Positions 1,686 through 53,617 of a stretch of DNA of 64,000 nt are shown here, in pieces. Under the pieces are notes generated by a model. The model was not told where the DNA came from and did not search any database. It was given only the letters and a program-made list of their open reading frames with translations. The stretch is from a candidate division WOR-3 bacterium (GTDB taxonomy: Bacteria > Hydrothermota > Tepidihabitantia > Tepidihabitantales > Tepidihabitantaceae): positions 4,411-68,410 of the forward strand of contig JBDRUN010000002.1 of NCBI GenBank assembly GCA_039801365.1, in the 5' to 3' direction. A program made the position numbers and the translations under genes. The first letter of the stretch is position 1. Each line of letters begins with the position of its first letter.

Positions 1686-2411
1686 TCAGCGCTGCTCTAC
1701 GACAATCGCTTCAACGTCGCGGAGGTGCGACACCATGTAGTCGGGTCGGTACATGGCAAGAAGCGCAACCGGTCTAAATCCATGGGTTACCGCGCAACTG
1801 GTGATTCCGGCAGCCCGCGCCGCAATGATGTCCTGCTCGGTGTCGCCGACAACCAGCGCGTCTGCGCTCCTTCCGCCAAGGCGTTCGAGCGCCGAAAGGA
1901 ACGGCTCAGGATCGGGCTTATGTTTCCTGCCCTCTGCCCAGCCGTGGATGTAGTCAAAGTAGCAGTCAATGCCTGCTGCACTGGCCGATTCTTCAGCCTG
2001 AGTCTGGTGTTTCGTGGTCACGATCGCAAGCTTCGCACCAATTGTCTTGAGACAAGCAAGCAGTTCCCTTGCTCCGGGGTAGGGCCGTTGAACTTTGAGT
2101 CCGTGAGCCGCGTAGTGCTGGCGGAATGCATTGGCAAACGCCTTTGCCTGATTCGGTTCGGCCGGGTACCCGAGTTCAGCGAGAATCAGCTCCAGGGGCT
2201 TGCCGACCTGTATCAGGATTGTGTCCCGGTCTGGTGGCTCGCGTTGGTCAACCGTTGCGAGCGCGTACCGGACCGACGCCACAAGACTATCGGCCGAGTC
2301 AACCAGCGTGCCGTCGAGGTCAAAGAGAACAAATGGGTAGCGGAGCGAAACCGTCAGGGACTCCAGAGTTCTAAGTTCTTGACTCCGGGCGTTGCCCCGG
2401 ATTCCGGGCAT
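1686..2411 (-). CDS. HAD-superfamily hydrolase (phosphoglycolate phosphatase-like)
   Basis: Motif I '[12 protein letters not shown]' and a '[16 protein letters not shown]' motif. ATG at 2411 lies inside a repeat copy and overlaps the atpB 3' end. The start could instead be further downstream. Confidence 0.7.
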
Positions 2412-3861
2412 CGGACGCCCAGCCCGTCGAATCCTCGGCCTCTTGAGTTCTTTGCCGGTAGTACTTGTCCAGATTCGAGTCCCGAACCCGCTTGAGTTCG
2501 GTTCGCGGGAACATGGCAAGCAGTTCCCAGCCGAGCTCAAGGGTCTGCACGATGGTTCGGTTCTCGAATTCGCCCTGTGACACATACCGTTTCTCGAACT
2601 CGCGGGCGAAGCTGAGATAGACCCTATCCATCTCGGTCAAGGCTGCTTCGCCAAGAATGACCTCGAGTTCTTCGGCCTCCTTGCCCCGAGCATAGCAGGC
2701 GTAGAGCTGGTTGAACAGATCAGCGTGGTCTTCGCGGGTTTTGCCGGCGCCGATGCCCTTGTCTTTGAGCCGGGAGAGTGATGGCAACACGTCAATTGGT
2801 GGCGACACGCCCCGGCGATGCATCGGCCGCGAGAGGATAATCTGCCCTTCGGTAATGTAACCCGTGAGGTCCGGTATCGGATGGGTCTTGTCGTCTTCAG
2901 GCATTGTCAGAACCGGCATCATGGTGATTGAGCCTGGCTGGCCTTTGATGCGACCACAGCGCTCGTAAACCGAGGCGAGGTCGGTGTAAAGGTAACCCGG
3001 GAAGCCACGGCGCCCCGGGATTTCTTTGCGTGCGGCCGAGATTTCGCGTAGCGCTTCGCAGTAGTTGGTCATGTCGGTGAGCACGACGAGTACGTGCATG
3101 CCGAGCGTGAAGGCAAGATACTCAGCTGCGGTCAGGGCGGTGCGAGGTGCGGCAATCCGTTCAATCGCCGGTTCGTCCGCGAGGTTGAGAAAGAGCACCG
3201 TACGTTCAATCGCACCGGACTCGGTAAAGCTTTGAATGAAGAACTGCGCTTCTTCGAGTGTGATTCCCATCGCCGCGAAGACGACTGCAAATGTCGTACG
3301 GCTGGGAGTATCGGAGTCTGAGATTCCGAGTACGGTCGCTTGCCGGACAATCTGGGCCGCGAGCCGGTTGTGGGGGAGACCGGACCCAGAGAATATCGGC
3401 AGCTTTTGTCCGCGCACCAGAGTGTTCAAGCCGTCAATTGCTGAGATTCCGGTCTGGATGAATTCGTTAGGGTATTCGCGGGCGCATGGGTTGATGGGCG
3501 CACCGTTGATGTCGCGTTGTTCCTCCGGGATGATTTCCGGGCCGGAGTCGCGAGGTCGGCCCAGTCCGTCGAATACCCGGCCCATGATGTCCGGTGATAG
3601 TCCAACGGTGATGCCGCGTCCCAGAAATCGGACCCGGGTCCGCGGTACGCTGATGCCTGAGCTTCCTTCGAATACCTGCACGAGCGCACGGTCATGGTCC
3701 ACTTCGAGCACTTGCCCTCGACGCGTCAGTCCGGCAGACTCACGACCGTCCGGGTCGGCAGTACGAATTTCGACCAGCTCCTGATATTTGACCCCTTCAA
3801 CGCCTTCTACCAGCAGGAGTGGACCGGCAACCGATACGACCGTCTGATACTCTTTAATCAT
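2371..3861 (-). CDS. atpB: V-type ATP synthase subunit B
   Basis: Strong family resemblance over the full length ('[20 protein letters not shown]...[14 protein letters not shown]'). The C-terminal tail '[20 protein letters not shown]' is encoded by a repeat-element copy. Confidence 0.9.
2381..2420. repeat. Palindromic repeat family, partial copy 1 (atpB 3' end / HAD start)
   Basis: 'ctccgggcgttgccccggattccgggcatcggacgcc' matches the copy 3 core with 2-3 mismatches. It encodes the atpB tail '...[15 protein letters not shown]' and the ATG of the HAD gene ('MPGIRGNAR'). Confidence 0.7.
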
Positions 3862-5837
3862 TTTTCTGTATTTCCCGCGGTCGGCTCCCTGGCCGCTGCC
3901 TCCTGTGCGCCGGTTTCGGGGCTGACCTGGCCAGTAAGTTCGCGGACTAGTTGCTCGCGAACCGCAGCGATTGCGGTCTCGGCCTCATGTTCGGAGAGGA
4001 ATTTCATCCGTGCAATCCTGTCGCGCACCGGCAGGCGTTCAATTGTGGCAATGTCAACGCCCCGGGCCAGGACCGTCTGGGCAAGGCGGTAGAATTCCAG
4101 AATCACTGTCAGCATTCGGGCCTGCTTTGGCAGCGAAGTGTAGGTGTCCGTCTCGTGGAATGCGTTCTGATGCAGGAAGTCTTCACGCAGCGACCGGGCC
4201 GTTTCCATTACCAGCCGGTCGGCAGCGGAGAGTGCGTCTTTGCCCACCAGCCGGACAATTTCTTCAAGTTCGGCTTCCTTGGACAATAGCGCCATCGCCT
4301 GTTGTGCATCAGCAGTGAACTCTTCGGAGGCCATCTTGGCAAACGCCGGCGCAAGTGATTCGGCGTACAGTGAGTAAGAATTGAGCCATGAAATGGCGGG
4401 GAAATGCCGTCGGAATGCCAATTTATCTTCAAGCGACCAGAATACTTTGACCACGCGGAGCGTTGCCTGTACCACCGGGTCATTCAGGTCACCGCCTGGC
4501 GGCGAGACTGAGCCTACCACCGAAAGTGCCCCTTCGCGGCCCGCTCCACCGGACGTCGGACGCCCGGAGTCCGGAGCAACCCCGGAAGGCCCGACCTGAA
4601 CCGAAACAGACCCGGAATCGGGTTTCAAGGGCGGAGCCCCTGATTCCCCGCACAAGGCGCCGGGCTTGGCCGACTTGTCGAGCCCGTCTGATCCAAGACA
4701 CACAACCCGGCCCGCACGTTCGTAGAACTCGGCAATTCGCGAAGCAAGATAGGCTGGATAGCCTTCTTCCCCGGGCATTTCTTCGAGCCGACCGGAAATC
4801 TCCCGCATTGCCTCGGCCCAGCGCGATGTCGAGTCGGCCTGAAGCGCAACCGAATAGCCCATATCCCGGAAATACTCTCCGATTGTGATGCCGGTGTAGA
4901 CCGAAGCTTCGCGTGCTGCGACCGGCATATTTGACGTGTTCGCAACTAGCACGGTGCGTTTCATGAGCGGCTCGCCTGACTTCGGGTCTTTCAGTTCGGG
5001 GAACTCCATGAGTACGTCGGTCATCTCGTTTCCCCGCTCACCACAGCCAACGAAAACGATAATTTCAGCGTCCGACCACTTCGCAAACTGATGCTGGATT
5101 ACCGTCTTACCGGAGCCGAACGGTCCGGGTACGCAAGCGGTCCCACCCTTTGCCAGCGGAAAGAAGGTGTCAATGACCCGCTGCCCGGTTACCAGTGGCG
5201 CATCCGGCTGTAACCGCGCCTTCACCGGTCGTGGTCGCCGCACTGGCCAGCGCTGAACCATCGTCAACCGGATCTCTTCTCCGCCTTTTCCGCGCAGGAT
5301 ACAGATTGTCTCCTCGACCGTAAACTCGCCGGTCCTGATGTCAATAATCTCACCCGAGACTTCGGGCGGCACCATAATTCGGTGTTCGACGAGGACTGTT
5401 TCTTGGACCGTGCCGAGGATGTCGCCCGGGCCAACCTTATCCCCCTTGTGGCGCAGTGCCTGGAAGCCCCACTTCCGCTTCCGATCCAAGGCCGGGGCTT
5501 CGACGCCACGGGAAAGAAAGTCGCCGGACTTCAAGCGCAGTACGTCCAGGGGCCGCTGGATGCCGTCGTAGATTGACGATATGAGACCCGGGCCGAGTTC
5601 GACCGACAGGGGTTCGAAAGTCGGATAAACCGGGTCCCCGGGGCCGATACCGCCGGTTTCCTCATATACCTGCACAGATGCTCGGTCGCCAGTAAGGTCA
5701 ATGACTTCACCCAGAAGACGCACTGTCCCGACTCGCACGACGTCATACATCTTTGAACCGGACATGCCAGCAGCCACAACGAGCGGGCCGGAAACCTTGA
5801 CCACTCTGCCAACTGAAGCCGACTGCTCTTCCCTCAT
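3858..5837 (-). CDS. atpA: V-type ATP synthase catalytic subunit A, with an in-frame insertion of about 50 aa
   Basis: Walker A 'GPFGSGKT' and the conserved '[26 protein letters not shown]'. A G/S/P-rich segment '[51 protein letters not shown]' falls between the conserved 'CLGSDG' and '[14 protein letters not shown]' blocks. It coincides with repeat copy 4551-4673. Confidence 0.9.
4551..4673. repeat. Palindromic repeat family, copy 2 (in-frame within atpA)
   Basis: 'gacgtcggacgcccggagtccggagcaaccccggaaggcccgac...ccctgattccccgcacaaggcgccgggc' shares a core of about 75 bp with copies 3 and 4. Terminal inverted repeats GTCGGACGCCCGG / GCGCCGGGC. Multiple CCGGGG-loop-CCCCGG hairpins. Confidence 0.8.
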
Positions 5838-6256
5838 TTCGTCCTCGAAGCGTCGGGCGTCTGTCCAAACACATCTGCGCCCACTGCCATTCGAACTACG
5901 TTTTTGAGCCGTTCCACCGTCGGGTCGTCAATCCCTGAGGGAAGCGCGACGATACATGGCACCGCAGCCTTTCGGTATTTTTCCAGAACCTGACCGATCG
6001 AGTTGAACAGGTCGGCGGTGAAGAATATCACCCGGAAACCCCGGGCCACAAGGCGCTCAACCACAGCCGCCGCTCCCGGCCCGGGTTCGGCAGGGAATAC
6101 GGCAAGCCCGGCAGCCCGGAATGCTGCCACTGCGTTTTCCTCGCCGACAACAGCCACCGGCCCGATATCAGTATCAGCCGACCGGCTGCTGCCCAACTCA
6201 TCCTCTCCAGAAAGATCAGCAGGGAAGTGGCTAGCCTCAAAGTGGCTGGTCTTCAT
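5834..6256 (-). CDS. atpF: V-type ATP synthase subunit F
   Basis: 'VAVVGEENAVAAFRAAGLAVF' fits the subunit-F N-terminus. The true start may be an internal GTG at about 6157 (MAVVGEEN...). The 140-aa ATG form carries an N-terminal extension. Confidence 0.7.
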   Translation of the reverse strand: MKTSHFEASHFPADLSGEDELGSSRSADTDIGPVAVVGEENAVAAFRAAGLAVFPAEPGPGAAAVVERLVARGFRVIFFTADLFNSIGQVLEKYRKAAVPCIVALPSGIDDPTVERLKNVVRMAVGADVFGQTPDASRTK

Positions 6257-6267
6257 GTTTTTCCTAT

Positions 6268-7275: not shown

Positions 7276-7285
7276 GTGGTATTAC

Positions 7286-8694: not shown

Positions 8695-9678
8695 TCAGTG
8701 GAGCACTGTCAGCCTGGTAACGCGTGTCCAGTTCTGGCCTGTGACCCGGACAAAGTATGTCCCAGTTAAGACGTCTCGCAGGTCCAGGACAGCCAAGTTG
8801 CCGGGTAACATGCGGAGTTCCCGGACTAATCGGCCGGTGTGGTCAAACAGCGTCACAGCAACCGGCCCGGACAAATTGGGTGGCAGTTGAAGGCGCACCT
8901 TTGTCCGGCACGGGTTCGGCCACAAAGTAACTGGCTGGCTTACACCTAGCGGCTCGGTCTTGATTCCGGTTAATGGCAGCATTCTGAATACTGCGCCACC
9001 TTCGGTCCCGGCCAGTAGCATCGGACTTGGATTACCGCGCGCCACCAGGCTCAATACCCTGTTGCAGGTCAGCCCCGCATTCAGCTCGGTCCAGGTTGCG
9101 CCGGCGTCAGTTGAGACCCAGACCCCGCTGCCGTACGTACCGGCATATATGACCCGTGCGTCAGATGGATCAATGGCCAGTGCCCGCGTGTCACGGGTAA
9201 AGCTGGTCGCAGTCCAACTGTCGCCCGAGTTTGTGCTCTTGAATACGCCCCGGTAAGTGCCACAGTAGAGTACGCCCGGATTATCCTTGTCGGCCTTGAT
9301 TGTCCACACTCGACCGGTCAGCCCTGTTCGGCTCGATGTCCAAGTTCGACCCAGGTCGGTCGAGACTAGCAGTGCCGGGTAGCTGTAGTTATAGGCGCTG
9401 TCGCCGCCGATATAGACCCGGTTCGCATCAGTCGGGTCAAATTCAATGGCAAACGCATTGCTGCCCAAGGCTAGCGTATCGTGTTCCCAGTTCGCGCCCC
9501 GGTTCGAAGTGTGCGAGACAGCAATGTTCCAGACACTGTTCGGGTACAGGTTGCCGACGCAGAATATCACGTCCGAGCTGTGCGGAGAAACTGCAATGTT
9601 ACCACCATCGTTCATCCAGCTTTCAACTGTTGTCCAAGCGGCGCCGCCGTTGGTGCTCGTAAAGAGCTCGGCGGTCCC
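8695..9678 (-). CDS. BNR/Asp-box repeat protein, C-terminal part with T9SS C-terminal domain (in-frame continuation of 9679..10902 after a TGA)
   Basis: Asp-box repeats (S-T-D/N-x-G-x-x-W-T) and a T9SS sorting domain at the end ('WPNPCRTKVRLQL...GTYFVRVTG'). The reading frame is contiguous with the upstream ORF across TGA 9679-9681. The annotated ATG form would be 8695..9615. Confidence 0.65.
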   Translation of the reverse strand, partial: GTAELFTSTNGGAAWTTVESWMNDGGNIAVSPHSSDVIFCVGNLYPNSVWNIAVSHTSNRGANWEHDTLALGSNAFAIEFDPTDANRVYIGGDSAYNYSYPALLVSTDLGRTWTSSRTGLTGRVWTIKADKDNPGVLYCGTYRGVFKSTNSGDSWTATSFTRDTRALAIDPSDARVIYAGTYGSGVWVSTDAGATWTELNAGLTCNRVLSLVARGNPSPMLLAGTEGGAVFRMLPLTGIKTEPLGVSQPVTLWPNPCRTKVRLQLPPNLSGPVAVTLFDHTGRLVRELRMLPGNLAVLDLRDVLTGTYFVRVTGQNWTRVTRLTVLH

Positions 9679-10902
9679 TCAACCAGAGCCTTCAAACATC
9701 CAGACACGCTGCGGGTCAGTCGGGTCAAAGGCGATGTTGCAGATATTGCCGCAGCTCAGGGGCGATGTTTGGCGGGTCCAGTTGTCGCCGTCGTCTGTGG
9801 TCTTGAAAATAGCGTTGTCCATGAACTCGGCCCAGGCCGAACCCGGTGTACCTGGGACAAAGGCGATGGCCGGAATCTTGCCAATAAGTATCCCAGAATT
9901 GACCGCGGTCCAGCTTGCGCCGTAGTCCGTAGATTTGAACATCCCGGCAGTCGAACCGGCGTAAACAGTCGAGTTCTCACCCGGTACGGTCAGCACAGCC
10001 CGGATTGTCGTCCCAACCAGGCCGGGCCCGACGTTTGCCCAGGTCGAGCCGGCGTCGGTTGACTTCTGGACCGTTGACAGGCACGAGGAGTACATCACGT
10101 TAGGCTCGCCAGGTACGGCGACGATCCGGTAGTTGTAGTTGCCGGTGCTCTGCTTTGCCCAAGTCAGGCCGGCATCGGTCGAACGCCAGACCCCGTAGAG
10201 CGTGCCGGCAAACAACGTGTTATTGTCCGTCGGGCTGACAAACAGCGAATATATGTAGTAGGCGTTCGAAGGAAACTCAATCCTGGTCCAGGTTGCGCCA
10301 CAATCGGTCGAGCGGAAGAAAGCGGTTCGGTTCCCTGAATACCCGCCGACATACACTCTGGTCGTGTCAACCGGATCAATCGCGCACGAATAGGCGTAAC
10401 CATTCGCGGTCGAGATGGTGTCAACAAACGTGGTGGTCCAGGTCGTGCCGGCATTGGTGCTCTTTGCCAGGCTAATCTGCCACACAGTGCCATTGGACTT
10501 GTAGCAGGCAACGTAGATGACCTGTGGATTCTTAGGATTCACTGCCAAGTCGTAGCCAACGGTGTTCGTGCCAAGCGAAACTTGGCTCCAGGTCGCGCCC
10601 GCGTTTGTCGTGCGATAGAAGACACCGCTCACCACGCCAAAAAGTGTGTTCGGGTCAGTGGGATGCGCGGCCATGTTCCACGGATAGGTGCTCAAGGCTG
10701 CACCGGCCAGGGTCCAGTTTGTTCCGCCGTTCGTAGTTCTTAGCAGTGGTGTACTTGAGAGGCTCGGCGCGACGTAAATCGCAGCGCCACCGGCTGCCAC
10801 TACACCACAATAAATCGGCCCGCCTTCAGGGCCAACGCTCTGCCATTCTCCAATTGCTAAGCCGGCGAGCATCACCAGCGCTGAAATAATCAATGTTCTC
10901 AT
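9679..10902 (-). CDS. BNR/Asp-box repeat protein, N-terminal part with signal peptide
   Basis: Signal peptide 'MRTLIISALVMLAGLAIG' with ATG at 10902. Repeated 'F[KR][ST]TDxGxxWT' Asp-boxes. Ends at an in-frame TGA 9679-9681. Confidence 0.7.
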   Translation of the reverse strand: MRTLIISALVMLAGLAIGEWQSVGPEGGPIYCGVVAAGGAAIYVAPSLSSTPLLRTTNGGTNWTLAGAALSTYPWNMAAHPTDPNTLFGVVSGVFYRTTNAGATWSQVSLGTNTVGYDLAVNPKNPQVIYVACYKSNGTVWQISLAKSTNAGTTWTTTFVDTISTANGYAYSCAIDPVDTTRVYVGGYSGNRTAFFRSTDCGATWTRIEFPSNAYYIYSLFVSPTDNNTLFAGTLYGVWRSTDAGLTWAKQSTGNYNYRIVAVPGEPNVMYSSCLSTVQKSTDAGSTWANVGPGLVGTTIRAVLTVPGENSTVYAGSTAGMFKSTDYGASWTAVNSGILIGKIPAIAFVPGTPGSAWAEFMDNAIFKTTDDGDNWTRQTSPLSCGNICNIAFDPTDPQRVWMFEGSG

Positions 10903-10994
10903 ACTGCCTCGCTTTCCGGTTCGTGTCTGTGGTTCATGACTTCTGCCGCTGCATCGGTCCACGGCAGAACAGACACGCGTGCTGTCGCTTTGAA

Positions 10995-11022
10995 ATTTTA
11001 GACCGGGCTCGAGCCCTGTCAA
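10995..11022 (-). promoter_or_regulatory. Sigma70-like promoter for the BNR gene (TTGACA-16-TAAAAT) with a 12-bp palindrome GGGCTCGAGCCC in the spacer
   Basis: Minus strand reads ttgacaGGGCTCGAGCCCggtcTAAAAT. The -35 is the complement of 11017-11022 and the -10 the complement of 10995-11000. Confidence 0.5.
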
Positions 11023-11249
11023 TGGCCAGCCCGGCCCCGAAAAACTGGCATGGAATCACAGCGATACGGAGACAGACGGATGGCTGTGGCAGATCAACGG
11101 ACAGCAACCGAAAGTTTGTAATCCAGACCTTTGTATCCCCTTGACGCCGGGTCTTCTGTGAGTCGCTGTGCTTTTTCGATTTCGGCGGTTCGGACTGCCC
11201 TGAGACCGAGACTAGCGTAGTCGGTCTTGATTCCAGTCGGGGGGGGCTG

Positions 11250-14200
11250 TTAGTACTGGACTAGGAGTCTGTCGCGCCTGGCCGCGCGGGTCTGGACCAC
11301 TCCGGGCTCGCTGACTCGAGCATCAATCTTGTACAGGTAAACCCCGTTGGCCAGGGTCCGTCCTTCCTCATCCCTTCCGTCCCACTCGACCTGGTTGTAG
11401 CCGTACGAGCAAGGCTGCTCGAGCAGGCACCGGACCAGACGGCCTGAAATCGTGTACACCTTAATGCTTACGGACGCGGCGCGGGACAGCTCGAACGTGA
11501 AGGTGGCCGGACCAGATACTGGATTTGGATAGACAAGCACGTTCTCGATGCGCAGTTCGTCCGACATCTCGGCTCGGACGTACGCGGTCGCAACAAGCCG
11601 ATTGCGCAGGTTGTCCGACGCGACGACCGTGAGCGAATCCAGTTCCTTGCTGATTTCCACCGGGTAGGAGAACCGGCCGGTTGTGGTTGAGTTCTGGTCG
11701 TAGCCGAACACGGGCAGAAGGTCAATACGGCCTGATGTGCGGGCGCCAATGTAGAGCGAGAGGCTGTAGTCCGGCACCGCGGCAAGGAGAATACCGGACG
11801 GGTCTGAGATGATGCCTTCAAGCGTGAATCTTCTCGGTACGTCTGTTGTATCGCGCACTGCCAAGGGCCGGCGGTCAGCAAAGAGCATAAGTTCGGGTGC
11901 AGCGCGGTCCGTGACCGTGACCGTGTCGCCGAGCGCGAGGGTCTTTTTTCTTGCCGAGTACCCGGTCTGGTTGTCCCAAGCGAGCAAGCTGACCGAGGCA
12001 GTGTTCGGTTGGCGGATATACTTGCCATTGGGAACGATGAGAGTGTCCGGGTAGTCAAGCCTCGGCACCAGAAAAGAGCATTCCACCTGTCCCGAGTCGA
12101 ACGTGCCGAGCGCCTCCTGTAGTCGGTAGCCGGGAAGCACATAGCTGACGGCGCCGGCCTCAGAGCTGTAGGTTCGATACCAGTCAAGCTCACGTACCGA
12201 GATGCCATACCGTCCTTTTTGCACCGGTACAGAGTCGCTTACGGTGTTGGTGCCGCCCGGATACAGGGTGTCGGGTGTGACAATCGGCGGTATGCCCGGT
12301 TTTGGCAACCTCAGCATCATGCCCGGGTCCCCGAACATGTGGTATATCGTGTAGGTCAGCCAGGCGGGAAAGAAACTGGCACCGACTGGCAGGCTGTCGT
12401 TCTCCGCAAGTCGGCCAAACAGCGTGCGGGCAAACAGTTCGTTCGAGCCCGGGGTCGTTGCCTTGGAAGCACCGTACGTGGCAATGCAACCCGATTCCTT
12501 TCTGACCAGTTCCTCAGCAATCGCTTCGTAGCGAGTGTCTTCGAATCGACCGACACCGCACGAACCAAAGAACGCTAGTGGGTTACGACCGCCATTCGTG
12601 ACTTGAGGCACGCCGTCAATCGAGAGTGTCCGCTCATGGCAGAGCTGAAATCCGGCGCCGTGCCCGAAGAAACACCAGAACAAGGCGCCCTGGTTCAACT
12701 GATTCAAGAGATCGGTCCGCGCACCGGCCTTGTCGTTCACGCCGGTGTAGGGATACTCGGTCAGATAGATTTTCACCGGGTCCAAGAGATTGCGGGTGAA
12801 AAGCACAATGTTTTCGCATCCGACGATATGTGAGAACCCAATCGGGTCGCGCTTGCCCGGCTGGCCCAGCCACTCATCGTCCGCTAGCAGCACGAAGCGT
12901 TTTGCCCAGAACCCGAGCGGTTGTGTCTCGTAGGTTTTGACCTTATCTAGGAACCTGCGCAATTCGACTGCGCTGCGACAGGTGATGCGGGCCAGAACCA
13001 TGTCCGGCGCACCGCCCTGTCCCTGGAAATCGGCATACCAGGCGTCGTATGCCTTTGCGGTCATGCCATACACTTCAGGATCAATGTCATAGCCCATCTC
13101 GTAGGCCGGAACCGAGGGCATGTGCCCGAGCCCGAGCCGGTTCCGGTAATCATAAGTCGCATCGCCGGCCAAAAGCCCATACACCGGCTGCTTGTCCGCC
13201 AAGAAACGCTGGATTGCCGCCGGTTCCTCCATGCCGAAAGTGTAGTCGTCGTAGATGTCGGAAAGCCGGACCGCCCGGACCCGAGCTGATGGAATGCCGC
13301 GGACGTTACCTTCGCGATACCGGGCAAACATCCTGGCCGCGGCATGAAACTCGTCCGGACAGATGATATAATAGTCAGCCTGCTCGGCTTGGTCGAGCAG
13401 GCTACCGGGTCTGCGCGGTTCGAGTGTAAGCACCGGCCGAAGGTTGGCGACCAGGGCGCAACAGAACTCGCCCATGCCCCGGACTTCGACCTTTGCTTTG
13501 CGTGTGCTGCCTGACACCTCGGTGTCCACGATCCGCTTGGGCGCGCGCCAGTCGGTTACGTCCAGCAGCAGGACCTCGCCGGCCCCGCCCTCGACCGCAA
13601 ACTCAACCGGGCCGGAGTCGGCAAAGAAGAACCGCAAGAACGGCCGGGCCGATGACAGTTTGAGTTCCTGGGTGTAACGCACCTGGAGGAAATCAAGGTA
13701 ATCAACCATCTCTGGATCGCCATAGATCTCAATGGTCAGGGTGTCCGGCTGGCCGACCGGCCGCCGGGTCTCGGGTGGGATGCTGTCGAGCACAAAGTCG
13801 GCTGGCGGCGGACACGAGTGACTAGGCCGCATCCAAAGAGATTCTAGCAGCACGCCGTTCAAGTACAGTCGACAGAAGTGTTTGGATACGGTATCGCCCT
13901 CGGCCCTGGCCGCGTACATCCGGCCGGATATTTCTTCGATACTGGTGCGGCCGGGTAGTGGGATTTCGACTCGGTTCGCAACGCTGTCAACCCCGGCCTG
14001 CTTAAAGTACTTCTGCCAGAGCCACAAGAGTCCCGACCGCGCCGGACAGAGCAAGTCCTCCTCAACTCGAACATGAGCCGGTGCGGTCGTCGTCGGTCTT
14101 GTGGCACCGGCACCGGAGACACTTGCCATCCTTCGGCCCGGTTCGCCGCCCCAAGTCAGCCAAAAATACCGGTAATCGGTAAACAGATTCTCCTGCCACT

Positions 14201-15367: not shown

Positions 15368-16909
15368 TCACCTGACAAGAACGAGCCTTGCCTCAGTTGA
15401 GGCTTGTCTCCGGTTGGCTGCTCTCACGAGATAGACTCCGGTCGGGACCGGTCTGCCAGCCCCATCAGTGCAGTCCCAGACCGCCATCCTGATGCCGTTC
15501 GACTGACAGGTCGCGGTGAGAGTCCGGACCAGCCGTCCAGCCGCGTCGTGAACCTCCAGACTGAATGACTCAGTCTCGCGGCCAAGCACAACGATGTTTG
15601 CTTTGCCGACGCACGGATTCGGGCTCACCTGAATGCCCCGCGTGGCCGGGGCGCTGCCGGGTTCCTCGGCCAGGCCGACCTCCACCATGCCCAGCGAGTC
15701 GGTCTTGACCAGGTACACGTACCAGTAGTCAACGTCACCGGTCAGCACGTAACCGCGGTCTGCGGTCTGCTCCACCCAGAAGGCGGAGACGGTCCCTAGG
15801 GTGAACGGGGGCCTGAAACTCCTGGTCCAGAGCGTATCGCCGAGCGAGTCGGTCCTGATAAGGCATGCCGCACGGCGAGGACCGCCAGGACCGGCGATGA
15901 CATACCCCTTGTCCCACGTTTGCCGGACGCAGTGGGCCCAGATGCCGTTCCCGCCGCATACGCGGAGCCATTGTATTTCGCCCAGGTAATCGGTCTTCAT
16001 CAGCATCGGGCCGCCATCCTGCTGCGCCGTGTCTTGGGTCGAACCGGTGATGATGTACCCGCCGTCGTCGGTCTGCCTGATGCTCATACCGTCGGCAAAC
16101 TGGTAGCGGTTCCACCGGTTCCGCACCTTGGTCCACAGGGTCTCGCCCAGCGAATCGGTCTTGACCAGATACATGTAGAGAGTGTCCGTCGTGTCGCGCA
16201 AGAGTCCGCTGACGATGTACCCGCCGTCGCTGGTCTGAACGACCGACTTTCCCACGCTGGCCTCTTCGCCGGGCACGGGGTAAGTTCTGAACCAGCTCAG
16301 CTCGCCGCGCGAGTCCACCTTCTCCAAGCCTAGATGAGTTCCGCAGGCGTCCTCGAATATCCCGGTGACGATGACTCCGCCGTCAGCAGTCGATGCAGCC
16401 GCGCCGGTGCTGACCGAAGCAGAAATGAAGAACTTGTTTCTCCACAACTCCTTGCCCGTTGAATCCACCTTTGCCGCAACCACGACATGACCGTTGTCGT
16501 TGTCAAACGTGTCACCGACGATGATGCAGCCCCCATCGGCCATCAGGCATTCGTAGCCCATTCGCCAGTCTTGGTACAGGGCTTTCCACAGCGTATCACC
16601 CAGCGAGTCGGTGCGCAAGAGAATCATGTTGTACGTGCAGTGCAGGCTATCGCCGGTTTGAACATGCCCGCCGACAATGTACCCGCCATCCGCGGTCTGC
16701 TCCACTGTGTACCCGCAGGCATTTCCCGGCACGCGCCAGCACCATGTCCGCTCAAACGTCACGACCGCCCCGGACCACGCGGGGAACACCAGAATTGCAA
16801 GAGGCAGCCTTGACAAAAGAATCCGGACCGCGGACGCCGCCGGATGGCTGGCTCGGTTCCTTCCGGCGCATGTCGCCGAGGAATTGCAGGTCAAGTGCCG
16901 GGCAGGCAC
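15368..16909 (-). CDS. Beta-propeller repeat protein with T9SS C-terminal domain
   Basis: About 7 tandem repeats of 'V[EQ]QT.DGGYI..G........Y.V.L[VI]KTDSLG.TLW'. CTD 'PNPCVGKANIVVLGRETESFSLEVHDAAGRLVRTL...GVYLVRA'. N-terminal start uncertain. Confidence 0.7.
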   Translation of the reverse strand: MPARHLTCNSSATCAGRNRASHPAASAVRILLSRLPLAILVFPAWSGAVVTFERTWCWRVPGNACGYTVEQTADGGYIVGGHVQTGDSLHCTYNMILLRTDSLGDTLWKALYQDWRMGYECLMADGGCIIVGDTFDNDNGHVVVAAKVDSTGKELWRNKFFISASVSTGAAASTADGGVIVTGIFEDACGTHLGLEKVDSRGELSWFRTYPVPGEEASVGKSVVQTSDGGYIVSGLLRDTTDTLYMYLVKTDSLGETLWTKVRNRWNRYQFADGMSIRQTDDGGYIITGSTQDTAQQDGGPMLMKTDYLGEIQWLRVCGGNGIWAHCVRQTWDKGYVIAGPGGPRRAACLIRTDSLGDTLWTRSFRPPFTLGTVSAFWVEQTADRGYVLTGDVDYWYVYLVKTDSLGMVEVGLAEEPGSAPATRGIQVSPNPCVGKANIVVLGRETESFSLEVHDAAGRLVRTLTATCQSNGIRMAVWDCTDGAGRPVPTGVYLVRAANRRQASTEARLVLVR

Positions 16910-16912
16910 GGT

Positions 16913-18233
16913 TTACCTCGCAACCACTATCTTGCCCGCGGCGCGGGCCGCGGCTGCTTCTATCGCGTAGAAGTACACGCCCGGAGCAACGCCATCGTGG
17001 TTCCAGACCAATTCGGTCGCGCCCGATGTTGCCGTGCTCCTGACAGAAGCTCTCACGCGGCCAGTCGCGTCGCGTACGCTCAGCGTGACCGGGCCGGAGA
17101 ATGGTGCTCCAATCCGGAACCGGTGCGTGCTAGGACCGGCAGACACAAAGACCGATACTTGGGGCCCACCTGTGCCGCTCTGTCCTCCGTCGCCTTGCTC
17201 CTCAGCGCCGCTGAGCGAGAACCGCTTGAAAATCTGGCCACTGCTGTGGCCGATTTCGGCGTACACGAACGAGCCGTCATGGCACAGCGCCGCGCCCTTG
17301 TACTGGTAGCTCCACCAAGTCCTTTCGGCGTCACTGGTGAAGTATCGGATGCCGCCGCCTCGCGCATCATAGACCCACCACTGCCTCCCGCCGCTTCCTC
17401 GGAAGCACCAAACTGAGTCGCCGCCCGGCTTGGTTGTCATTGCGCCGCCGTCGCTGATGTCATAAGCCACGCTCGCCGCCACTTCCGAGCGGTCCAAGAC
17501 CGGGTCGTACTTGTAGAGAATATACGTGTTGTCCCCGCGCTGCGCAAAGACCAGCCCCTTCGAGTAGCCCATGCCAGTCATCGGGCACCATGCCAACGCA
17601 CCACCGCCCTTGACCGGGTTGCCCATAACGGCGGAGGACAGCTCCTTCCATGCGCTTGGCTGAGGCGCACGGGTCGGGACCACCGGGAAACGGTAGCGGA
17701 AGAACCTTGAACTGCCACCGCCGACCAGCGCGTAGATATAGGCGTAGCTCAAGCCCGACTCCATGTGATAGCCTCCGAAACAGAGTGCGCCGCCGTCATA
17801 CACCGGAGCCGGTATGTCCTCAAGCCGCTGCCATGAGTTATACCCGGGACGGTAGATGTAGAACTCCTGCGTACGATTCCCCTTGAGCGCGAAGAGCCAG
17901 CCGTTTTCAGGGTAGGCGTAAGGGTCTGCCACGTACGCCATCGCCCCGCCCCAGTCAACCCTGGTCGTGGGGGTCTGCGGCATTGACTCCAGTGCCGGTC
18001 GCCGTCGTGATGTTGTAGCGGTGCAGTTGGCCGTGATATGGTGGTCTGGGCGCTGCATTCCGGCCGTGCAACAGCCACACATACGGAGTCCCGTTGCACC
18101 TGCCGAACGCCATTGCCGTTCCTTCGTACAGCGGGTACCCCGGGATATTCTCAAGGTCATACCATTGACCCGCCAGAAGGACCATCGGGCACAACACGAG
18201 CCCAATGATGCTCCACTGCTTCAGACTGCTCAT
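16913..18233 (-). CDS. Kelch-repeat protein with signal peptide and T9SS CTD, frameshifted within a G5/C5 run near 17968-17972
   Basis: ORF 17955..18314 supplies the signal peptide 'MSSLKQWSIIGLVLCPMVLLAGQ' (ATG 18233). ORF 16913..18205 supplies the Kelch-like body and CTD. Deleting one C/G in the homopolymer joins 'TGTGVNAADP' to 'TTRVDWGGAMAYVADPY' in one frame. Confidence 0.65.
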
Positions 18234-27535: not shown

Positions 27536-27774
27536 CGCGTGAGACGACCAACAAGCAGGCCGACGACCACACTCAGGCCAAGGAGCGCAACAAAAGCCAC
27601 CATTCCGGCCCTCAGCGCTTCGCCGATAACCTGCCCTCGGCCGAGTTTGTGCCGTTGATACTCCATGTAGACAATGGCAAACGCTGCTCCACCGCCCAGG
27701 AGACTGAACACCCCGTTCACCGCGAGCAAAGTGGTCAGCATCGGACTTGTCCTACTGTGACTGCGAAGCTCCAT
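27532..27774 (-). CDS. Small two-helix membrane protein (hypothetical)
   Basis: 'MELRSHSRTSPMLTTLLAVNGVFSLLGGGAAFAIVYM...MVAFVALLGLSVVVGLLVGRL'. Overlaps the antiporter 3' end. Weak call. Confidence 0.35.
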   Translation of the reverse strand: MELRSHSRTSPMLTTLLAVNGVFSLLGGGAAFAIVYMEYQRHKLGRGQVIGEALRAGMVAFVALLGLSVVVGLLVGRLTR

Positions 27775-45833: not shown

Positions 45834-45907
45834 GGGCCCGTAGCTCAGTTGGTCAGAGCAGCTGACTCATAATCAGCCGGTCGTCCGTTCGACCCGGACC
45901 GGTCCCA
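45834..45907 (+). tRNA. tRNA-Met (anticodon CAT); could alternatively be a lysidine tRNA-Ile2
   Basis: Cloverleaf: acceptor GGGCCCG, D-arm GCTC-AGTTGGTCA-GAGC, anticodon arm GCTGA-CTCATAA-TCAGC, T-arm GTCCG-TTCGACC-CGGAC, discriminator A. One C:U mismatch at 4:69. No encoded CCA. Confidence 0.7.
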
Positions 45908-46379
45908 TTCCCTGCCCCAAAGGTAAGTCCCCCAAGATAAGGTTGATAGCTCGGCACGCTTGTGTGCCGTTCGCGCGGAGAACGCTCTGAACGGACGGCA
46001 CACGCCCAAGACGAGGCGCGCAGTCGAATCGGCTGCGAGCAGCTAGTTCGTTCGCGTCAGACAATCACGGCTAGGGTGGAGTCGTTCAGAGAGAAGACCG
46101 ACAGCGTTTGGAAGGAGTTCAACTATGGATAGTAGAGTGTAGATACGTTGCTAGTTGGTCGGCAGGCCTACCACGCAAGCGCCGGTCGAACTTCTACTGG
46201 CAGCCCGCGACCGGATACCACCCACGGCAGTCATCCCACAAGAACGGCCGTTCGATGGAGCCTTTGTCTGAGGCGCACAGTGGCCAGACGGAGTTGTGGA
46301 GCGAGGCGACGCCGGGCAGGGAGGTGCCGTCCGACGCCTTGGGGCGGCTCCCCAAGGCACAGCTGAGAAGGCGACCCGC

Positions 46380-46708
46380 GTGACCTTCGGGCTGTATGAA
46401 GACCAGAAGAGGACGGTGGCCGAGGCCATCGAGATTGCCAAGGAGAAAGGGCACACGTCTGTCGATTCCCACGCTCTGTCGCTGATTGCGCTTGACTATA
46501 TGGCCAACCACCTGACCCGCGAGACATCACGAAGGACGTTGTTGGCTACTTCAGGCGGGTCGAGAAGCTCTGCGGGTTTCAGTTTCTGGCGGTCAACCCG
46601 AGCACGAATGAGATTGTCTACGAGTCGGAGGGACTCAGAGGGCCTGAGAAGACGCCGGACACCGGGGAGACCTTTAAGTCGACCGGTCTGAGCAGTTCTG
46701 ATGGATAG
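46380..46708 (+). pseudogene. Frameshifted hypothetical gene
   Basis: GTG 46380 to 'ALDYMANHLTRE' in one frame. The +2 frame from about 46527 reads 'DITKDVVGYFRRVEKLCGFQFLAVNPSTNEIVYESEGLRGPEKTPDTGETFKSTGLSSSDG*', with stop at 46706-46708. Confidence 0.4.
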
Positions 46709-47171
46709 GCACGAATCATCCCGGCATGAGCAGTTCGTTCGGGCGTGGGCCGCATACCTTGATGGCTTCATATTCGACCTATGGCTAACGCTGACATTCG
46801 CCAGACCACTCAGTCACGCGGAAGCCGAGGCAGCTTGGATTGAACTCAATCATCTTCTAAGACGTGAGCTTGGTCATCGAGTCGAGTGGTTTCTGGTCTC
46901 GGAGTTGCAGCCGAACCGGGGTGTAGTTTACTTCCACTCCCTGATGGGCCACTGCCAGTATCACGATGGCAGCAAGTTGCTACCGTCAGTTGTCAAGGCG
47001 TGGTGGGAGAGCCGCTACGGCAGAGCCAACATCGACGTCTACGACCCGGAGCGCGGCACACGATACTACCTCGCCCAGAAGCTCGCGTGGGACGACGAGC
47101 ACCGAGTCTCTGACGTGCTCTCGTCCCGAGGTTTCCGCAAGCTGGCGCTTGCACATGGGAAGGACTCCTAA
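46701..47171 (+). CDS. Hypothetical protein with HUH-like replication-initiator motifs (Rep-like)
   Basis: 'FDLWLTLTF' (motif I-like), 'VVYFHSLMGH' (degenerate motif II) and 'YYLAQKLAW' (Y...K motif III-like). Weak family assignment. Confidence 0.4.
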   Translation: MDRHESSRHEQFVRAWAAYLDGFIFDLWLTLTFARPLSHAEAEAAWIELNHLLRRELGHRVEWFLVSELQPNRGVVYFHSLMGHCQYHDGSKLLPSVVKAWWESRYGRANIDVYDPERGTRYYLAQKLAWDDEHRVSDVLSSRGFRKLALAHGKDS

Positions 47172-47846
47172 GCAGCTACCGCTGATGTATTACCTCTGAG
47201 GCATTACCTTTGAGGCATAACCTTCTCAACACGACCCGCAGGTAGAGGCTTGGCGGGCCGGTCGACGTTCGTGAATAGATGGGTATGCAGTGCAACCCTT
47301 GTAGGATACTGCTGCCAAAACGCAAGGAGACCGCACATCACGAGGACCATAGACGTAAGGACCTCGCTCAACACCTGCTGCCTCAAGAAAGGGAAGACCC
47401 GGCTAGGACCGGAACGCCCCAGACAGCAGTTGGTCACACGGGTGCGGTTCAACACGTTGCCGAGGAGGACGTCGGATATTCCCGTGGATAATAGTGTCCC
47501 ACCGCAATTGAACCGGGACATGCCCTCGGTCTGACAACCAAAGTCTCAGGACGACGTGTGGTGGCAGATGTGGACCTGCCGTGAGCACGGCCTGCCGGGC
47601 GCGGCGTCATCCTACCTCCATACCCTAGCTAGCGTGAAAGCAAAAGCTGCGCCCCCATAGAGACCGTAGAGCAAGGGGATGACCCCGAGCATCTCAATGA
47701 GAACGGCGACCCACCGCTTCGTGTGCTTCAGCGACAAGGCCTAGACGCCGAGCGCGATGAACAGGACGCTCCAGCCAACCGCAGCAACGGCTGGGAGCCA
47801 AGACATCTACGTGAGACGTAGCCGCTACGGACGATGTGCTGCGCCC

Positions 47847-48863
47847 CTACTTGGCTCTAATCGTGTCAACAGCACTCAGACTTTCGCAGAGGAAAGACTT
47901 GACGAATAGCAGTTGTCTCTCCTTTGAGCGCGAGAGAAAGTGTGTATCCTCTCCCTCCAAGTCCGCACTGATAGTCCACCGAATGCGTCGTCTCGCCCCT
48001 CGGCCTATCTCCCTGACATCGCCGCGACCCAAGGTTCTGGTGGTCTGTTCGTCGAGTTTGACTCTATCTGTGGTTTCAAACACCAATGTCGACGGCTTGT
48101 CCCAATACACGCCTAGCCAGAACTGTTTGTTATGCAGCCACCAGCCAGCGTGTTGCTGGCCAACGGTCGGCTCGGGGTCAGCATTTAGCTCACGGGCGGC
48201 CTCCCCCAGCATCGTGTGCAGATACCACAGCGCATTCACACCTTGCCTGAGTTCCCAGCCTACTCTCTCCTCTCTAAGAGAACCCAAGAACTGCTTCATC
48301 AAGAAGTCGGATGACGGCTTCCGAAGCGAGAGCTGTTCAAGCACGGCGGCAGGGTCAGCCCACGCCAGCCAAGCGTCCGGCTTGTGATGCAACGATTCCT
48401 TGTCGCCGCTCTTCGTGAGCAGCGTCAGCAATTTGGTCGCGGACCCACTCCGGTCTAGCAATTCCCGGTAGCGCCGCAGTTGGTCTTTATCCACAATCCA
48501 CGAAACCTTGACCTCGACGAGAACAAGCGCATCGGGACACCTAATGGCAATGTCAGGCGTTCCTTCTTCCTTCGAGACTTGCGTGGTAACACCCATCCAG
48601 GGGACTTGGGCGTCGTCTAGCGACACGACGCCGTCAGTGAGAGCCCTAATGACGCGCCGTGCGGAGTCGTGCTCATACCTAAGCAAGTGGCGGAGAACAA
48701 ACGCGAAGTCATCAGACACGAGGTTTTCGTCCTGACGCCACGCCCACCGGTGCAAGCAGGTGAGGACATTGTCTGGTGTGCCCACTGGCTCGTCTGCCTC
48801 TGGGTCGGCCGGCTTCTCGACCATCTGCCAGTCAAACGACGCTTGATGGGTGGGTGTCTTCAT
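47847..48863 (-). CDS. PD-(D/E)XK nuclease-superfamily protein (restriction-endonuclease-like)
   Basis: 'PDIAIRCPDALVLVEVKVSW' D...E.K core. No close family recognised. Confidence 0.45.
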   Translation of the reverse strand: MKTPTHQASFDWQMVEKPADPEADEPVGTPDNVLTCLHRWAWRQDENLVSDDFAFVLRHLLRYEHDSARRVIRALTDGVVSLDDAQVPWMGVTTQVSKEEGTPDIAIRCPDALVLVEVKVSWIVDKDQLRRYRELLDRSGSATKLLTLLTKSGDKESLHHKPDAWLAWADPAAVLEQLSLRKPSSDFLMKQFLGSLREERVGWELRQGVNALWYLHTMLGEAARELNADPEPTVGQQHAGWWLHNKQFWLGVYWDKPSTLVFETTDRVKLDEQTTRTLGRGDVREIGRGARRRIRWTISADLEGEDTHFLSRSKERQLLFVKSFLCESLSAVDTIRAK

Positions 48864-49350: not shown

Positions 49351-49402
49351 AGTTCTATGGTCGAAAGTCTCTTGCCTAGATGAAGAAGATAAGGAGTAAC
49401 CG

Positions 49403-51013: not shown

Positions 51014-51093
51014 AGCCTCGCCTATCTCTAGCTAGTCTTCGCTTGACGGTCGTACGCGGTGTAGTTACGCTCTTGTGCCTAGCGATACGGGTT

Positions 51094-53292
51094 ATGAAAG
51101 ACACTATGCCACGTCTGCCGATTCTTGTTATACTTGCCCTGTCTGGCCTCGCTTTCGCGCTTTCGCCGCTCGAGCGCGATTGTGTGCTTTACGATGGCTC
51201 GGTCCGGACAACTGATGGCGTGGCCCGGTTGAACGTGCAGGTTCCAGCCGGACGTCAGCTAGTTGGTTTCTTTCTAGGAATCGAGGGCATCGAACAATTT
51301 ACAATATCGCTCAACGGTACGATCTTGAGAACGGTCATGCCCGGACCAACCCCCCGTACCATCATCCGCACCTTGGATTTGAGTGACTTCGCATCCCTAC
51401 TGAAGCCCGGGGTCAACCAGTTGGATATCTTTCCAGCTGATGGCGGCAGCGAATTTAGGCTACGCACCTGGGTCAGCGACCGGGCCTGGTACGTCTCATC
51501 GTTCCATGCGCACACGACCTACTCAGACGGCGTTCTGTCAGTGCACGACCTGCTTCAGGCAGCGCTGGCCGACGGTGGCCGGGCATACGCCGTGACTGAC
51601 CATGAAACCCTCGGCCAGTGCTACGATACCGCCTTCCACGACGTCGGCAATATGACTGTCATCCGCGGGTACGAGTGGACAACTGATTCAGGTCATGCCT
51701 GCTTGGTCGGTATCCAGGGAGCGAATACACTTCCCCACGGTTCGATCCACGACATGATTGACGAAGCTACTTGGCGCGGCGCAATGATACAGGTAAATCA
51801 CCCTACTGATCCGACAATGGAGTGGCTGCGCCGGCCGGCCCTTGACCCTGGGCTGGACTGGCTTGAGGTTTTCAACTCACTCACTTACTTCCCACCTTGC
51901 GCTTTGCGCCGGGAATCAGAGGCTGCTCCGCTTCTAGTCGGGGCTTCCGGGGTTGCCCCGGATTCCGGGCGTCGGAGGTCAGGGGGGCTAGACTCGGATG
52001 CACAGGCGGTCGCTTGGTGGCAGGAACTACTGTCGGGAGGTGCAACCATTGCCGCTGCAGGCTGCTCGGACTACCACGGCATTTATCCGGGCGAAGCACC
52101 ACTCAAGTCGTGCTCATTTGTATGGGCGCCATCCAATCATCCTGACACCATTCTCAAATATACCAAACTCGGTACGGTAATGGTCTTTGACACTCCGGAC
52201 AACTCCCGGCTCTGGCTTTACGCCGACACGAACAACAATGGTTCCTGGGACATTGTCATGGGCGAACACGTCCGGGTGAGCACGGGTTCGAAGACAGTCC
52301 GGTTCCGGCTTGAGGTCGAGGATGCGGACTGGACTGACGTGGTCTATGTATTCGACAAGTCTGGCGAGATATACTCCAAGACGCTCTGGACCGGCGGTGA
52401 CTTTGAATACGAATGGTCTCGTACTTTCTCGTCTGCTGACCGGAACTTCTTCCGGGTCGAGTTGTGCGCTGAGCTTGGGGCTGATTACGAGGGCGTAACC
52501 AACCCGATCTACGTCAACCACCGCGACTACGAACTTGGCCCAACCGAGCTTCTGACCGCCGCGGTTTCCTGGCCGGACACGCTCTACGTCGGTCGGGCCG
52601 ACACCCTGCATTTCCTAATTCGTAATACCGCCGGCTACAGCCCCTACCGAACCGGGCTCGCCGTGGCTCTTGACACAGGCCTCTTCGATGTGGTGCACTG
52701 GCAGACGTCAGGTCCAGGTGTCGGCCGCGTAGTGGAGCGTTCGAGTCAAGGCCACCGAATAATCGAGTGGCAGGCGGGCTACGAGTGGCAGAACCGGCTG
52801 CCAGTCGGAACCAACTTTCAGTACTGGCTCCTGGTCAGACCCAAGGCTGCCGGAAGCAACCCGGTGCTGTTCCGCTCCTGGGCCGACGACCGGTTGTTCA
52901 TCGTGGATGAGGACCCTGGCAGAGGGTTCCTCGGACCAGAGGCCAAGTACTGGTACCGCCGGTCAGTCCCGGTCGGTCAGCTTGTTGGCACTGCCGAGCC
53001 GGTGATGGCAAGACTGGTATCAGATTGGTCGGTCAGTCCCAACCCCGCACCGGACTTCATCGCTTTACAAATTAACTATTCGCCTGATGACCCTCTGCAA
53101 AGCGCCGTGCTTTACGACCTCACCGGACGTGCGCTCGGCGAACTGCCGATTCCCAGACTCGCTCCTGGACCAAACAATATCAAGTGGCAGCTCGGCAATG
53201 TCGCGGGCACGGGTCTTGCCGAGGGCATATATTTCCTGCGGGTATCCACGCACCTCCGGCAGCGGACCGAGCGCATCGTGCTCGCTCGTTAA
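51094..53292 (+). CDS. PHP-domain metal-dependent phosphoesterase with T9SS CTD, carrying an in-frame repeat-element insertion
   Basis: 'SSFHAHTTYSDGVLSVHDLL...AVTDHETL...INHPTDP' PHP motifs. Insertion '[33 protein letters not shown]' encoded by repeat copy 51901-51980. CTD 'LYDLTGRALGELPI...GIYFLRVST'. Confidence 0.8.
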   Translation: MKDTMPRLPILVILALSGLAFALSPLERDCVLYDGSVRTTDGVARLNVQVPAGRQLVGFFLGIEGIEQFTISLNGTILRTVMPGPTPRTIIRTLDLSDFASLLKPGVNQLDIFPADGGSEFRLRTWVSDRAWYVSSFHAHTTYSDGVLSVHDLLQAALADGGRAYAVTDHETLGQCYDTAFHDVGNMTVIRGYEWTTDSGHACLVGIQGANTLPHGSIHDMIDEATWRGAMIQVNHPTDPTMEWLRRPALDPGLDWLEVFNSLTYFPPCALRRESEAAPLLVGASGVAPDSGRRRSGGLDSDAQAVAWWQELLSGGATIAAAGCSDYHGIYPGEAPLKSCSFVWAPSNHPDTILKYTKLGTVMVFDTPDNSRLWLYADTNNNGSWDIVMGEHVRVSTGSKTVRFRLEVEDADWTDVVYVFDKSGEIYSKTLWTGGDFEYEWSRTFSSADRNFFRVELCAELGADYEGVTNPIYVNHRDYELGPTELLTAAVSWPDTLYVGRADTLHFLIRNTAGYSPYRTGLAVALDTGLFDVVHWQTSGPGVGRVVERSSQGHRIIEWQAGYEWQNRLPVGTNFQYWLLVRPKAAGSNPVLFRSWADDRLFIVDEDPGRGFLGPEAKYWYRRSVPVGQLVGTAEPVMARLVSDWSVSPNPAPDFIALQINYSPDDPLQSAVLYDLTGRALGELPIPRLAPGPNNIKWQLGNVAGTGLAEGIYFLRVSTHLRQRTERIVLAR
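51901..51980. repeat. Palindromic repeat family, copy 3 (inverted; in-frame within the PHP gene)
   Basis: Its reverse complement 'gacgcccggaatccggggcaaccccggaagccccgactagaagcggagcagcctctgattcccggcgcaaagc' is near-identical to copy 4 over about 70 bp. Confidence 0.85.
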
Positions 53293-53452
53293 CCCAAACC
53301 CGCCATGAAACAGCCAAAAATGGAACAACAGACTTAAGGGTACCCGCTAGCCGACCCAGCGCCGGGAGTTGGATAGCCTGAGGCGTATAACGCTTGGATT
53401 CGCGTGGCTCGTGGATTTCGCGGCCCACTCCGGTTCGGGGGTAGTCAGCTAT

Positions 53453-53479
53453 TGACAAACCCGGGACGACCGTTAGCAT
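53453..53479 (+). promoter_or_regulatory. Putative promoter TTGACA-15-TAGCAT upstream of repeat copy 4 and the membrane-protein gene
   Basis: Read directly. The spacer is slightly short. Uses the same TAGCAT -10 as the promoter at 29817. Confidence 0.3.
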
Positions 53480-53513
53480 AACTTTGGTGTCCGCACGCGG
53501 ACGAGACGGCGCA

Positions 53514-53617
53514 GAGCGCCGGGCGCCAAATGCCCGGAATCCGGGGCAACCCCGGAAGCCCCGACTAGAAGCGGAACAGTCCCTGATTCCCGAAGCAAAG
53601 CGCCGGGCGTCGGACGT
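53514..53617. repeat. Palindromic repeat family, copy 4 (intergenic / 5' UTR), flanked by the 11-bp direct repeat AGCGCCGGGCG
   Basis: 'gcgccgggcgccaaatgcccggaatccggggcaaccccggaagccccgactagaagcggaacagtccctgattcccgaagcaaagcgccgggcgtcggacgtc'. Lies between a TTGACA...TAGCAT promoter and the RBS of the 53791 gene. Confidence 0.85.

Follow-up and report, generated by a model that had tools for sequence, protein, structure and literature searches.

Short palindromic repeats inserted in frame into atpA and a PHP-domain gene of a candidate division WOR-3 bacterium

A 64,000-nt stretch of DNA from a candidate division WOR-3 bacterium (the window; GC content 59%) carries, at unrelated loci, five copies of a short GC-rich palindromic repeat, two of which lie within intact open reading frames (ORFs). 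The copies were located with an nhmmer profile that was built on the three long copies, B, C and D, and run over the window. In order of position, the copies and the genes and promoters next to them are:

1231..1296, plus strand: copy E, a diverged partial copy (20.9 bits, E 8.8e-6, profile positions 41-106)
1329..1356, minus strand: sigma-70-like promoter of the PAS gene, TTGACA-16-TAGAAT, just upstream of copy E
2354..2421, plus strand: copy A, partial (22.7 bits, E 2.5e-6, profile positions 36-102)
2371..3861, minus strand: atpB (V/A-ATPase subunit B), its C-terminus prolonged through copy A
3858..5837, minus strand: atpA (V/A-ATPase catalytic subunit A), 659 aa, ORF intact, host of copy B
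4546..4679, minus strand: copy B, full-length, sense, inside atpA (86 bits)
51043..53292, plus strand: PHP-domain CehA/McbA-family metallohydrolase gene, 749 aa, ORF intact, host of copy C
51893..51989, plus strand: copy C, sense, inside the PHP gene (92 bits)
53452..53479, plus strand: sigma-70-like promoter TTGACA-16-TAGCAT; copy D follows 34 nt downstream
53513..53621, minus strand: copy D, the most complete copy, intergenic (99 bits)

The long copies B, C and D matched the profile with E-values of 1e-26 to 1e-30. The next match in the window after these five copies was no better than E = 0.78, and no sixth copy was found there. Copies C and D, 1.56 kb apart, are the most similar pair and are 93% complementary over 72 nt, while B shares 78-79% identity with both over 71-74 nt. 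A 32-nt core, CCGGAATCCGGGGCAACCCCGGAAGCCCCGAC, gave three matches in the window at up to 3 mismatches and none in 100 shuffles. Copies A and E keep only the right-hand ~65 nt of the unit, and the best-conserved stretch of copy A is 2383-2423. Three copies (A, C, E) are on the plus strand and two (B, D) on the minus strand; relative to transcription A, D and E are antisense and B and C sense, in a set of five copies only. No Rfam family was found over any copy. All five copies recur in the same places in a sister strain, GCA_965649195.1, which is 98.5% identical over 22 kb (copy E at 11214-11279 of its locus L001). An earlier sequence-only reading had listed four copies with a shared core. All four were recovered at or near the positions it gave, and the core was borne out by the shuffles, but copy E had been missed. 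Similarity limited to low-complexity GC strings, the objection raised with that claim, is ruled out by the E-values of the long copies and by the identity of C and D.

Read in the orientation translated in atpA and the PHP gene, the unit is ~85-135 bp long, GC-rich and made of four parts: a left palindrome, CCCGGCGC-TTT-GCGCCGGG, perfect only in the sister strain's copy C; a core of ~26 nt, AATCAGRGRCTGYTCCGCTTCTAGTC; a small hairpin, CCGGGG-TTG-CCCCGG; and a right palindrome, CCGGGCGTC-N-GACGCCCGG, which can be made out in every one of the five copies. The unit contains two related 19-nt palindromes ~50 nt apart with the hairpin between them. The terminal inverted repeats claimed by the sequence-only reading exist as a 13-nt repeat (GTCSGACGCCCGG and, at the opposite end, CCGGGCGTCSGAC) but are imperfect in every copy, and host codons overlap the left end of copy C. 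The description as hairpin-rich was only moderately borne out, in that the three local palindromes retain 6-8 of 9 pairs in most copies and the fold scores given below exceed those of shuffles to a modest degree. The substitutions that separate the copies break pairs within the palindromes without compensatory changes, as would be expected if the element is decaying and its structure is not under selection.

The left palindromes of B and C also vary between the window and the sister strain, with four differences in 38 nt against a background of ~1.5%. In copy C (51898-51903) two adjacent bases differ, the window having CCTTGCGC and the sister locus L211 CCCGGCGC; the change turns Cys into Gly, and the version in the sister strain is a perfect 8-bp palindrome. 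Two further positions differ in copy B (4652-4659). These differences look like quasi-palindrome template-switch mutation.

Copy B was assessed in an AtpA alignment of 26 sequences, comprising the window, the 98.5%-identical sister strain and 24 more distant orthologs, and copy C against 16 PHP orthologs; every homolog of either protein came from candidate division WOR-3. After the CLGSDG motif of AtpA, the window and the sister strain alone carry an extra segment, which is absent in 24 of the 24 more distant orthologs, typical orthologs having 7-8 residues at this site. The inserted peptide corresponds to approximately residues 385-433 (nt 4539-4685; ~48 aa), and within copy B 33 additional nt, a partial duplication, encode KPDSGSV. 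AtpA is long, 659 aa against ~590 aa in most WOR-3 orthologs. A HMMER alignment to the solved A subunit of Pyrococcus horikoshii (1VDZ) splits at query 384|434 versus chain 380|382, and at this point 1VDZ has a one-residue beta-turn between two strands where the present protein has ~48 residues. In an AlphaFold2 model the insert is coil with a confidence score (pLDDT) below 50, in a model that is poor as a whole (mean pLDDT 59).

Between the window and the sister strain, 4 of 134 nt differ in the insert (2 non-synonymous) and 24 of 1846 elsewhere in atpA (4 non-synonymous). The difference is not significant; it would fit relaxed constraint on the insert alongside purifying selection on the remainder. 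The same loop is lengthened in other ways, by unrelated insertions, in P0004, P0063, P0120 and P0002, and it is a recurrent site of length change. In P0004 (L208, 9102-9237) ~25 aa were gained via a run of the heptanucleotide CCCCGGA; this segment was considered as a further copy of the repeat and rejected, as it consists of the run and has no similarity to the repeat at the DNA level.

Copy C adds 28 aa to the PHP protein, residues 286-313 (nt 51898-51981, 84 nt), between FNSLTYFPP and GGLDSDAQ, and the peptide is absent in 16 of 16 orthologs. This loop, too, is lengthened by an unrelated insertion in P0128, where 27 Ala/Pro-rich residues occupy the site of copy C (L004, 3784-3898). No second copy of that insertion was found in 8 kb, and it was rejected as a copy of the repeat for want of DNA similarity to it.

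B and C lie in sense in their host ORFs (atpA on the minus strand, the PHP gene on the plus strand) and are read in the same frame, both encoding SGVAPDSGR. The reading frame survives each of three independent length events: the insertion of B, that of C (84 nt) and the internal duplication of 33 nt in B. An intein or intron was rejected as the nature of the inserts: they are too short, contain no such motifs and have an open frame. Since the segments are absent from orthologs outside the species, we take B and C to be lineage-specific in-frame insertions of an interspersed palindromic repeat. The sequence-only reading had placed copy B between CLGSDG and the next conserved block of AtpA, had placed two copies in frame in these genes and had proposed ortholog alignments as the check; on each of these points the alignments agree with it.

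The orthologs without an insert allowed the empty sites to be compared. In L002, the closest AtpA ortholog lacking the insert, the site reads GGT GGG CCC GGC GAG, and in the PHP ortholog L212 it reads TAC TTC CCG CCC GGC CGG AAC CTG GAC. In both, GCCCGGC falls exactly at the left junction of the element; on the sense strand this heptamer occurs once in the 1866-nt atpA of L002 and five times in the 2121-nt PHP gene of L212. On both sides of copy D stands the same 10-nt sequence, GCCCGGCGCT, as a perfect direct repeat. The junctions suggest that insertion either favoured a target and duplicated it or was mediated by microhomology.

The remaining copies lie at gene ends and leaders. In relatives the gene order atpC-F-A-B-HAD-PAS is kept. 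Rather than being merely intergenic, copy A extends over both the 3' end of atpB and the predicted HAD gene start, antisense to both genes. It encodes the last ~21 aa of atpB, whose stop codon TAG (2371-2373) also lies within the profile match, and atpB is 496 aa long, compared with 469 and 458 aa in the relatives L208 and L210, where the gene ends soon after LDKYH and is followed by a spacer of 40-61 nt and a 229-aa HAD gene. In the window, the HAD gene has a single canonical start codon, ATG at 2409-2411 (minus strand); it is inside copy A, which gives a 41-nt overlap with atpB. Copy A probably supplies the start codon of the HAD gene. Copy E is antisense to the minus-strand PAS sensor gene and begins ~30 nt downstream of the -10 box of its promoter, so that it occupies either the 5' leader or an N-terminal extension; if translated, it would add ~40 residues to the PAS N-terminus relative to L208 and L210. 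As these two relatives, which lack the repeat, show a similar promoter (TTGACA-N17-TACAAT), the promoter is host sequence and not part of the repeat. The promoter at 53452..53479 probably drives the membrane-protein gene 53770-55002, and copy D has a probable place in the 5' leader of that gene, antisense to it. Further downstream, hypF and then dnaA (57747-59195 by synteny with L211 and L208) lie within 55058-59195, and the chromosomal replication origin is therefore probably near copies C and D.

We consider that the five copies probably represent an old, inactive, non-autonomous repeat family, similar to repetitive extragenic palindromes (REPs) and to MITEs (transposable elements of the miniature inverted-repeat type), which behaves like Rickettsia palindromic elements (RPEs). 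The underlying explanation, that a short non-autonomous repeat formerly spread at the DNA level and survived where it was harmless, appears likely to us. We infer that spread would have occurred through a transposase acting in trans or through microhomology-mediated insertion beside GCCCGGC, and that copies would have persisted only at neutral positions. In sense, the repeat has one open frame for a Gly/Ser/Pro/Ala-rich peptide, and on this proposal copies in the length-tolerant loops of AtpA and PHP would be translated as extra loop residues. The antisense copies would have been kept, D and E in 5' leaders and A in the spacer between two cistrons; A now supplies the tail and stop codon of atpB and, probably, the following gene's start codon.

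Several observations weigh against this explanation. No clean target-site duplication was seen: the flank match to GCCCGG(CGCT) is perfect at D, 6/8 at B and ~4/8 at C, and because the flank bases also belong to the terminal palindrome, a duplication is not separable from the sequence of the element. No insertion polymorphism was found between the window and the sister strain, both having all five copies. A Pfam scan of 40 window ORFs revealed no transposase and no REP-associated tyrosine transposase (RAYT) gene. An IS481-like gene of the sister strain was rejected as the parent, as its 14-nt perfect inverted repeats (16809, 18041) are unrelated to the ends of the element. The gain in stability of whole-element DNA folds over shuffles is modest only (z = -1.3 to -2.1). 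The shared frame of B and C is weak evidence, as there are only two coding copies and the repeat consensus is open in four of six frames. Finally, a degenerate core, CCGGARTCCGGRGCAACSCCSGRAG, gave no match in 596 Gb of GTDB genomes or in JGI metagenome contigs, and the 101 and 102 single matches of a looser 19-mer, GTTGCNCCGGAYTCCGGGC, in these collections came from unrelated taxa and were rejected as chance, none extending past the seed under the nhmmer profile.

The scope of these and related searches was as follows. The window's own genome is evidently absent from the GTDB and JGI collections scanned. Precomputed Pfam annotations of the sister-strain loci contained no transposase matching the element and no Y1/RAYT gene, and neither the window nor 47 kb of the sister strain yielded a parent insertion sequence whose ends match. 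The IS481-like transposase mentioned above, a helix-turn-helix ORF and a 257-aa ORF, lies at 16987-18084 of sister locus L001, ~4.5-5.6 kb beyond window position 1. At the protein level, the four open frames of copy D, concatenated, gave no match at E <= 10 among 5.8 billion proteins, in a search that was insensitive and also missed known positives. A profile of the sense-frame peptide, built on three peptides, gave two low-complexity multi-stretch matches and no true copy among 1.84 billion representative proteins.

The rival that fares best, and which we regard as unlikely, is that the repeat is a REP or REPIN-type element moved by a RAYT (an IS200/IS605-like Y1 transposase) rather than a MITE moved by a DDE transposase, the 19-nt palindromes being REP units and GCCCGGC the adjoining integration sequence. 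The paired palindromes with their inner hairpin would suit this reading. Transposases of this type typically insert beside a fixed short motif without clear duplication, and GCCCGGC stands at both empty sites. The CGTC/GACG of the right palindrome, moreover, recalls CGTC-tagged REPs including RPE-4 and RPE-6 (PMC3733652), but here it is central in the palindrome and not terminal, and the stems are all G/C where those REPs have A/T at the first two stem positions, loops of 4-5 nt and a CCA tail. No Y1 transposase gene was found in the window, and the orientation of the copies is mixed.

We find it improbable that the repeat is mobile now or was until recently, integrating in a sequence-targeted manner beside GCCCGGC. 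On that proposal the fate of a copy would be set by its orientation, sense copies becoming tolerated loops of essential enzymes, the V/A-ATPase catalytic subunit among them, and antisense copies settling in leaders and junctions, where they would provide stop and start codons and possibly RNA structure affecting expression, so that the repeat would be partly domesticated.

More doubtful still is that A, D and E serve a function in cis, as RNA or DNA elements acting on mRNA stability, translation or protein binding, with the coding copies as accidental by-products. These three copies do share an orientation relative to transcription that is opposite to that of B and C; D and E begin 30-34 nt downstream of a -10 box and A lies directly at a gene start, and REPs are known to act on mRNA stability and translation (PMC3733652). 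Against this, there are three such copies only, of which two are partial and diverged, their palindromes decay without compensatory changes and correspond to no Rfam family, and relatives keep the promoters and the gene order without the element, while the three downstream genes are functionally unrelated. Local slippage or ectopic gene conversion in loop-coding DNA rich in GC and CCGG, with no discrete mobile element, is scarcely credible, for although the AtpA loop of P0004 grew by a CCCCGGA run not repeated elsewhere, and conversion between C and D is possible given their proximity and similarity, a complex non-tandem sequence of ~100 nt is common to loci that are separated by 47-50 kb and have unrelated flanks, in coding as well as non-coding DNA and in either orientation, and its core is expected 0 times by chance.

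Returning to the old, non-autonomous repeat family that we favour, its closest parallel in behaviour is with RPE-1 to RPE-10, palindromic repeats found in frame within housekeeping genes (Ogata et al. 2000, summarised in PMC10969869 and PMC3733652). Like RPEs, the WOR-3 repeats are short (~100-150 bp), palindromic and interspersed, have no transposase of their own and lie in frame in unrelated housekeeping genes with one conserved-frame peptide, here at probably fold-compatible positions, other copies being intergenic or at gene termini. They differ in their host, which is free-living, uncultured and of 59% GC, in the possible target motif GCCCGGC, and in that only two internal coding copies were seen. 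Homology seems implausible because the stems are all G/C here whereas Rickettsia genomes are AT-rich. The resemblance to RPEs proposed by the sequence-only reading therefore holds for behaviour, as lineage-specific in-frame insertions in AtpA and PHP, with no evidence of homology to RPE families. That reading had also overstated the rarity of such elements, since intragenic REP-type repeats are documented in several phyla and not in Rickettsia alone (PMC3733652).

In particular, a catalogue of GTAG- and CGTC-tagged REPs by Di Nocera et al. 2013 lists copies within ORFs in Opitutus terrae, Thauera, Xanthomonas, Stenotrophomonas and other bacteria; they encode 20-82 residues there, give stop codons and occur at N-termini, and the CGTC class is not known to have a transposase of its own (PMC3733652). 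The WOR-3 repeat is similar in consisting of small, often paired palindromes that overlap gene ends, supply stops or are translated as extra residues. It lacks the tag by which REPs are defined (a palindrome of 20-40 nt with GTAG or CGTC at one end), as it contains no GTAG and has CGTC at the centre of its right palindrome. Its palindromes are 19 nt long with all-G/C stems, centres of 1-3 nt and no CCA tail, and in stem composition, loop length and tail it differs from the four CGTC families described (PMC3733652); its unit is a fixed composite of ~100 nt and not a free REP or a simple dimer. With MITEs such as Correia/NEMIS, ERIC, Nezha and BOX it shares size, imperfect terminal inverted repeats, the absence of transposase coding and occasional in-frame fusions with host ORFs (PMC10969869). 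It thus has the terminal inverted repeats of a MITE, if imperfectly, and is set apart in that no parent insertion sequence with matching ends was found and no target-site duplication is unambiguous. Mycobacterial interspersed repetitive units (MIRUs) lie between genes as tandem arrays and have no palindromic structure. Copy A resembles them in lying between two operon genes, holding the upstream stop and the downstream start with overlapping frames, but only one of the five WOR-3 copies behaves in this way. Because the repeat falls outside the REP definition and agrees only in part with that of MITEs, it is a new family of a known type, outside any named family, and no literature report of such repeats in WOR-3 was found.

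Other features were observed in the window. Several neighbouring proteins bear sorting tails of the type IX secretion system (T9SS). Divergence from the sister strain climbs to ~6% over ~9070-10860, compared with ~1.3% in the atp operon; the increase falls on two T9SS-sorted Sortilin/BNR-repeat proteins (8695-9615 and 9679-11022), and beyond ~10.9 kb ungapped register with the sister strain is lost. Direct repeats with a period of ~153 nt at 15689-16699, inside the gene of a FlgD_ig-tailed protein (15368-16909), are repeated protein modules unrelated to the palindromic element. At 29055-29116 on the minus strand, upstream of a Na+/H+-exchanger-family gene (27752-29200), there is a riboswitch for fluoride (Rfam RF01734, crcB motif; 45.9 bits). 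The region 45834-48863, which is also present in the sister strain, starts with a tRNA-Met gene (45834-45907) followed by small ORFs without a Pfam match, one of which (46701-47171) has a sub-threshold match of 25 bits to the replication-associated family REP_ORF2-G2P; the region may be a small integrated element.

In summary, with the repeat described here the free-living, uncultured WOR-3 bacteria would join the organisms that tolerate selfish palindromic repeats inside essential proteins. The nucleotide-binding domain of the V/A-ATPase A subunit contains a permissive site, which takes up ~48 extra residues here and up to ~25 in other WOR-3. For annotation, such repeats lengthen ORFs, cause spurious gene overlaps and shift predicted starts. 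The presence of GCCCGGC at both empty sites provides a testable lead on the choice of insertion site, and if the repeat were indeed targeted and partly domesticated, this would be such an element in a phylum without genetic tools.

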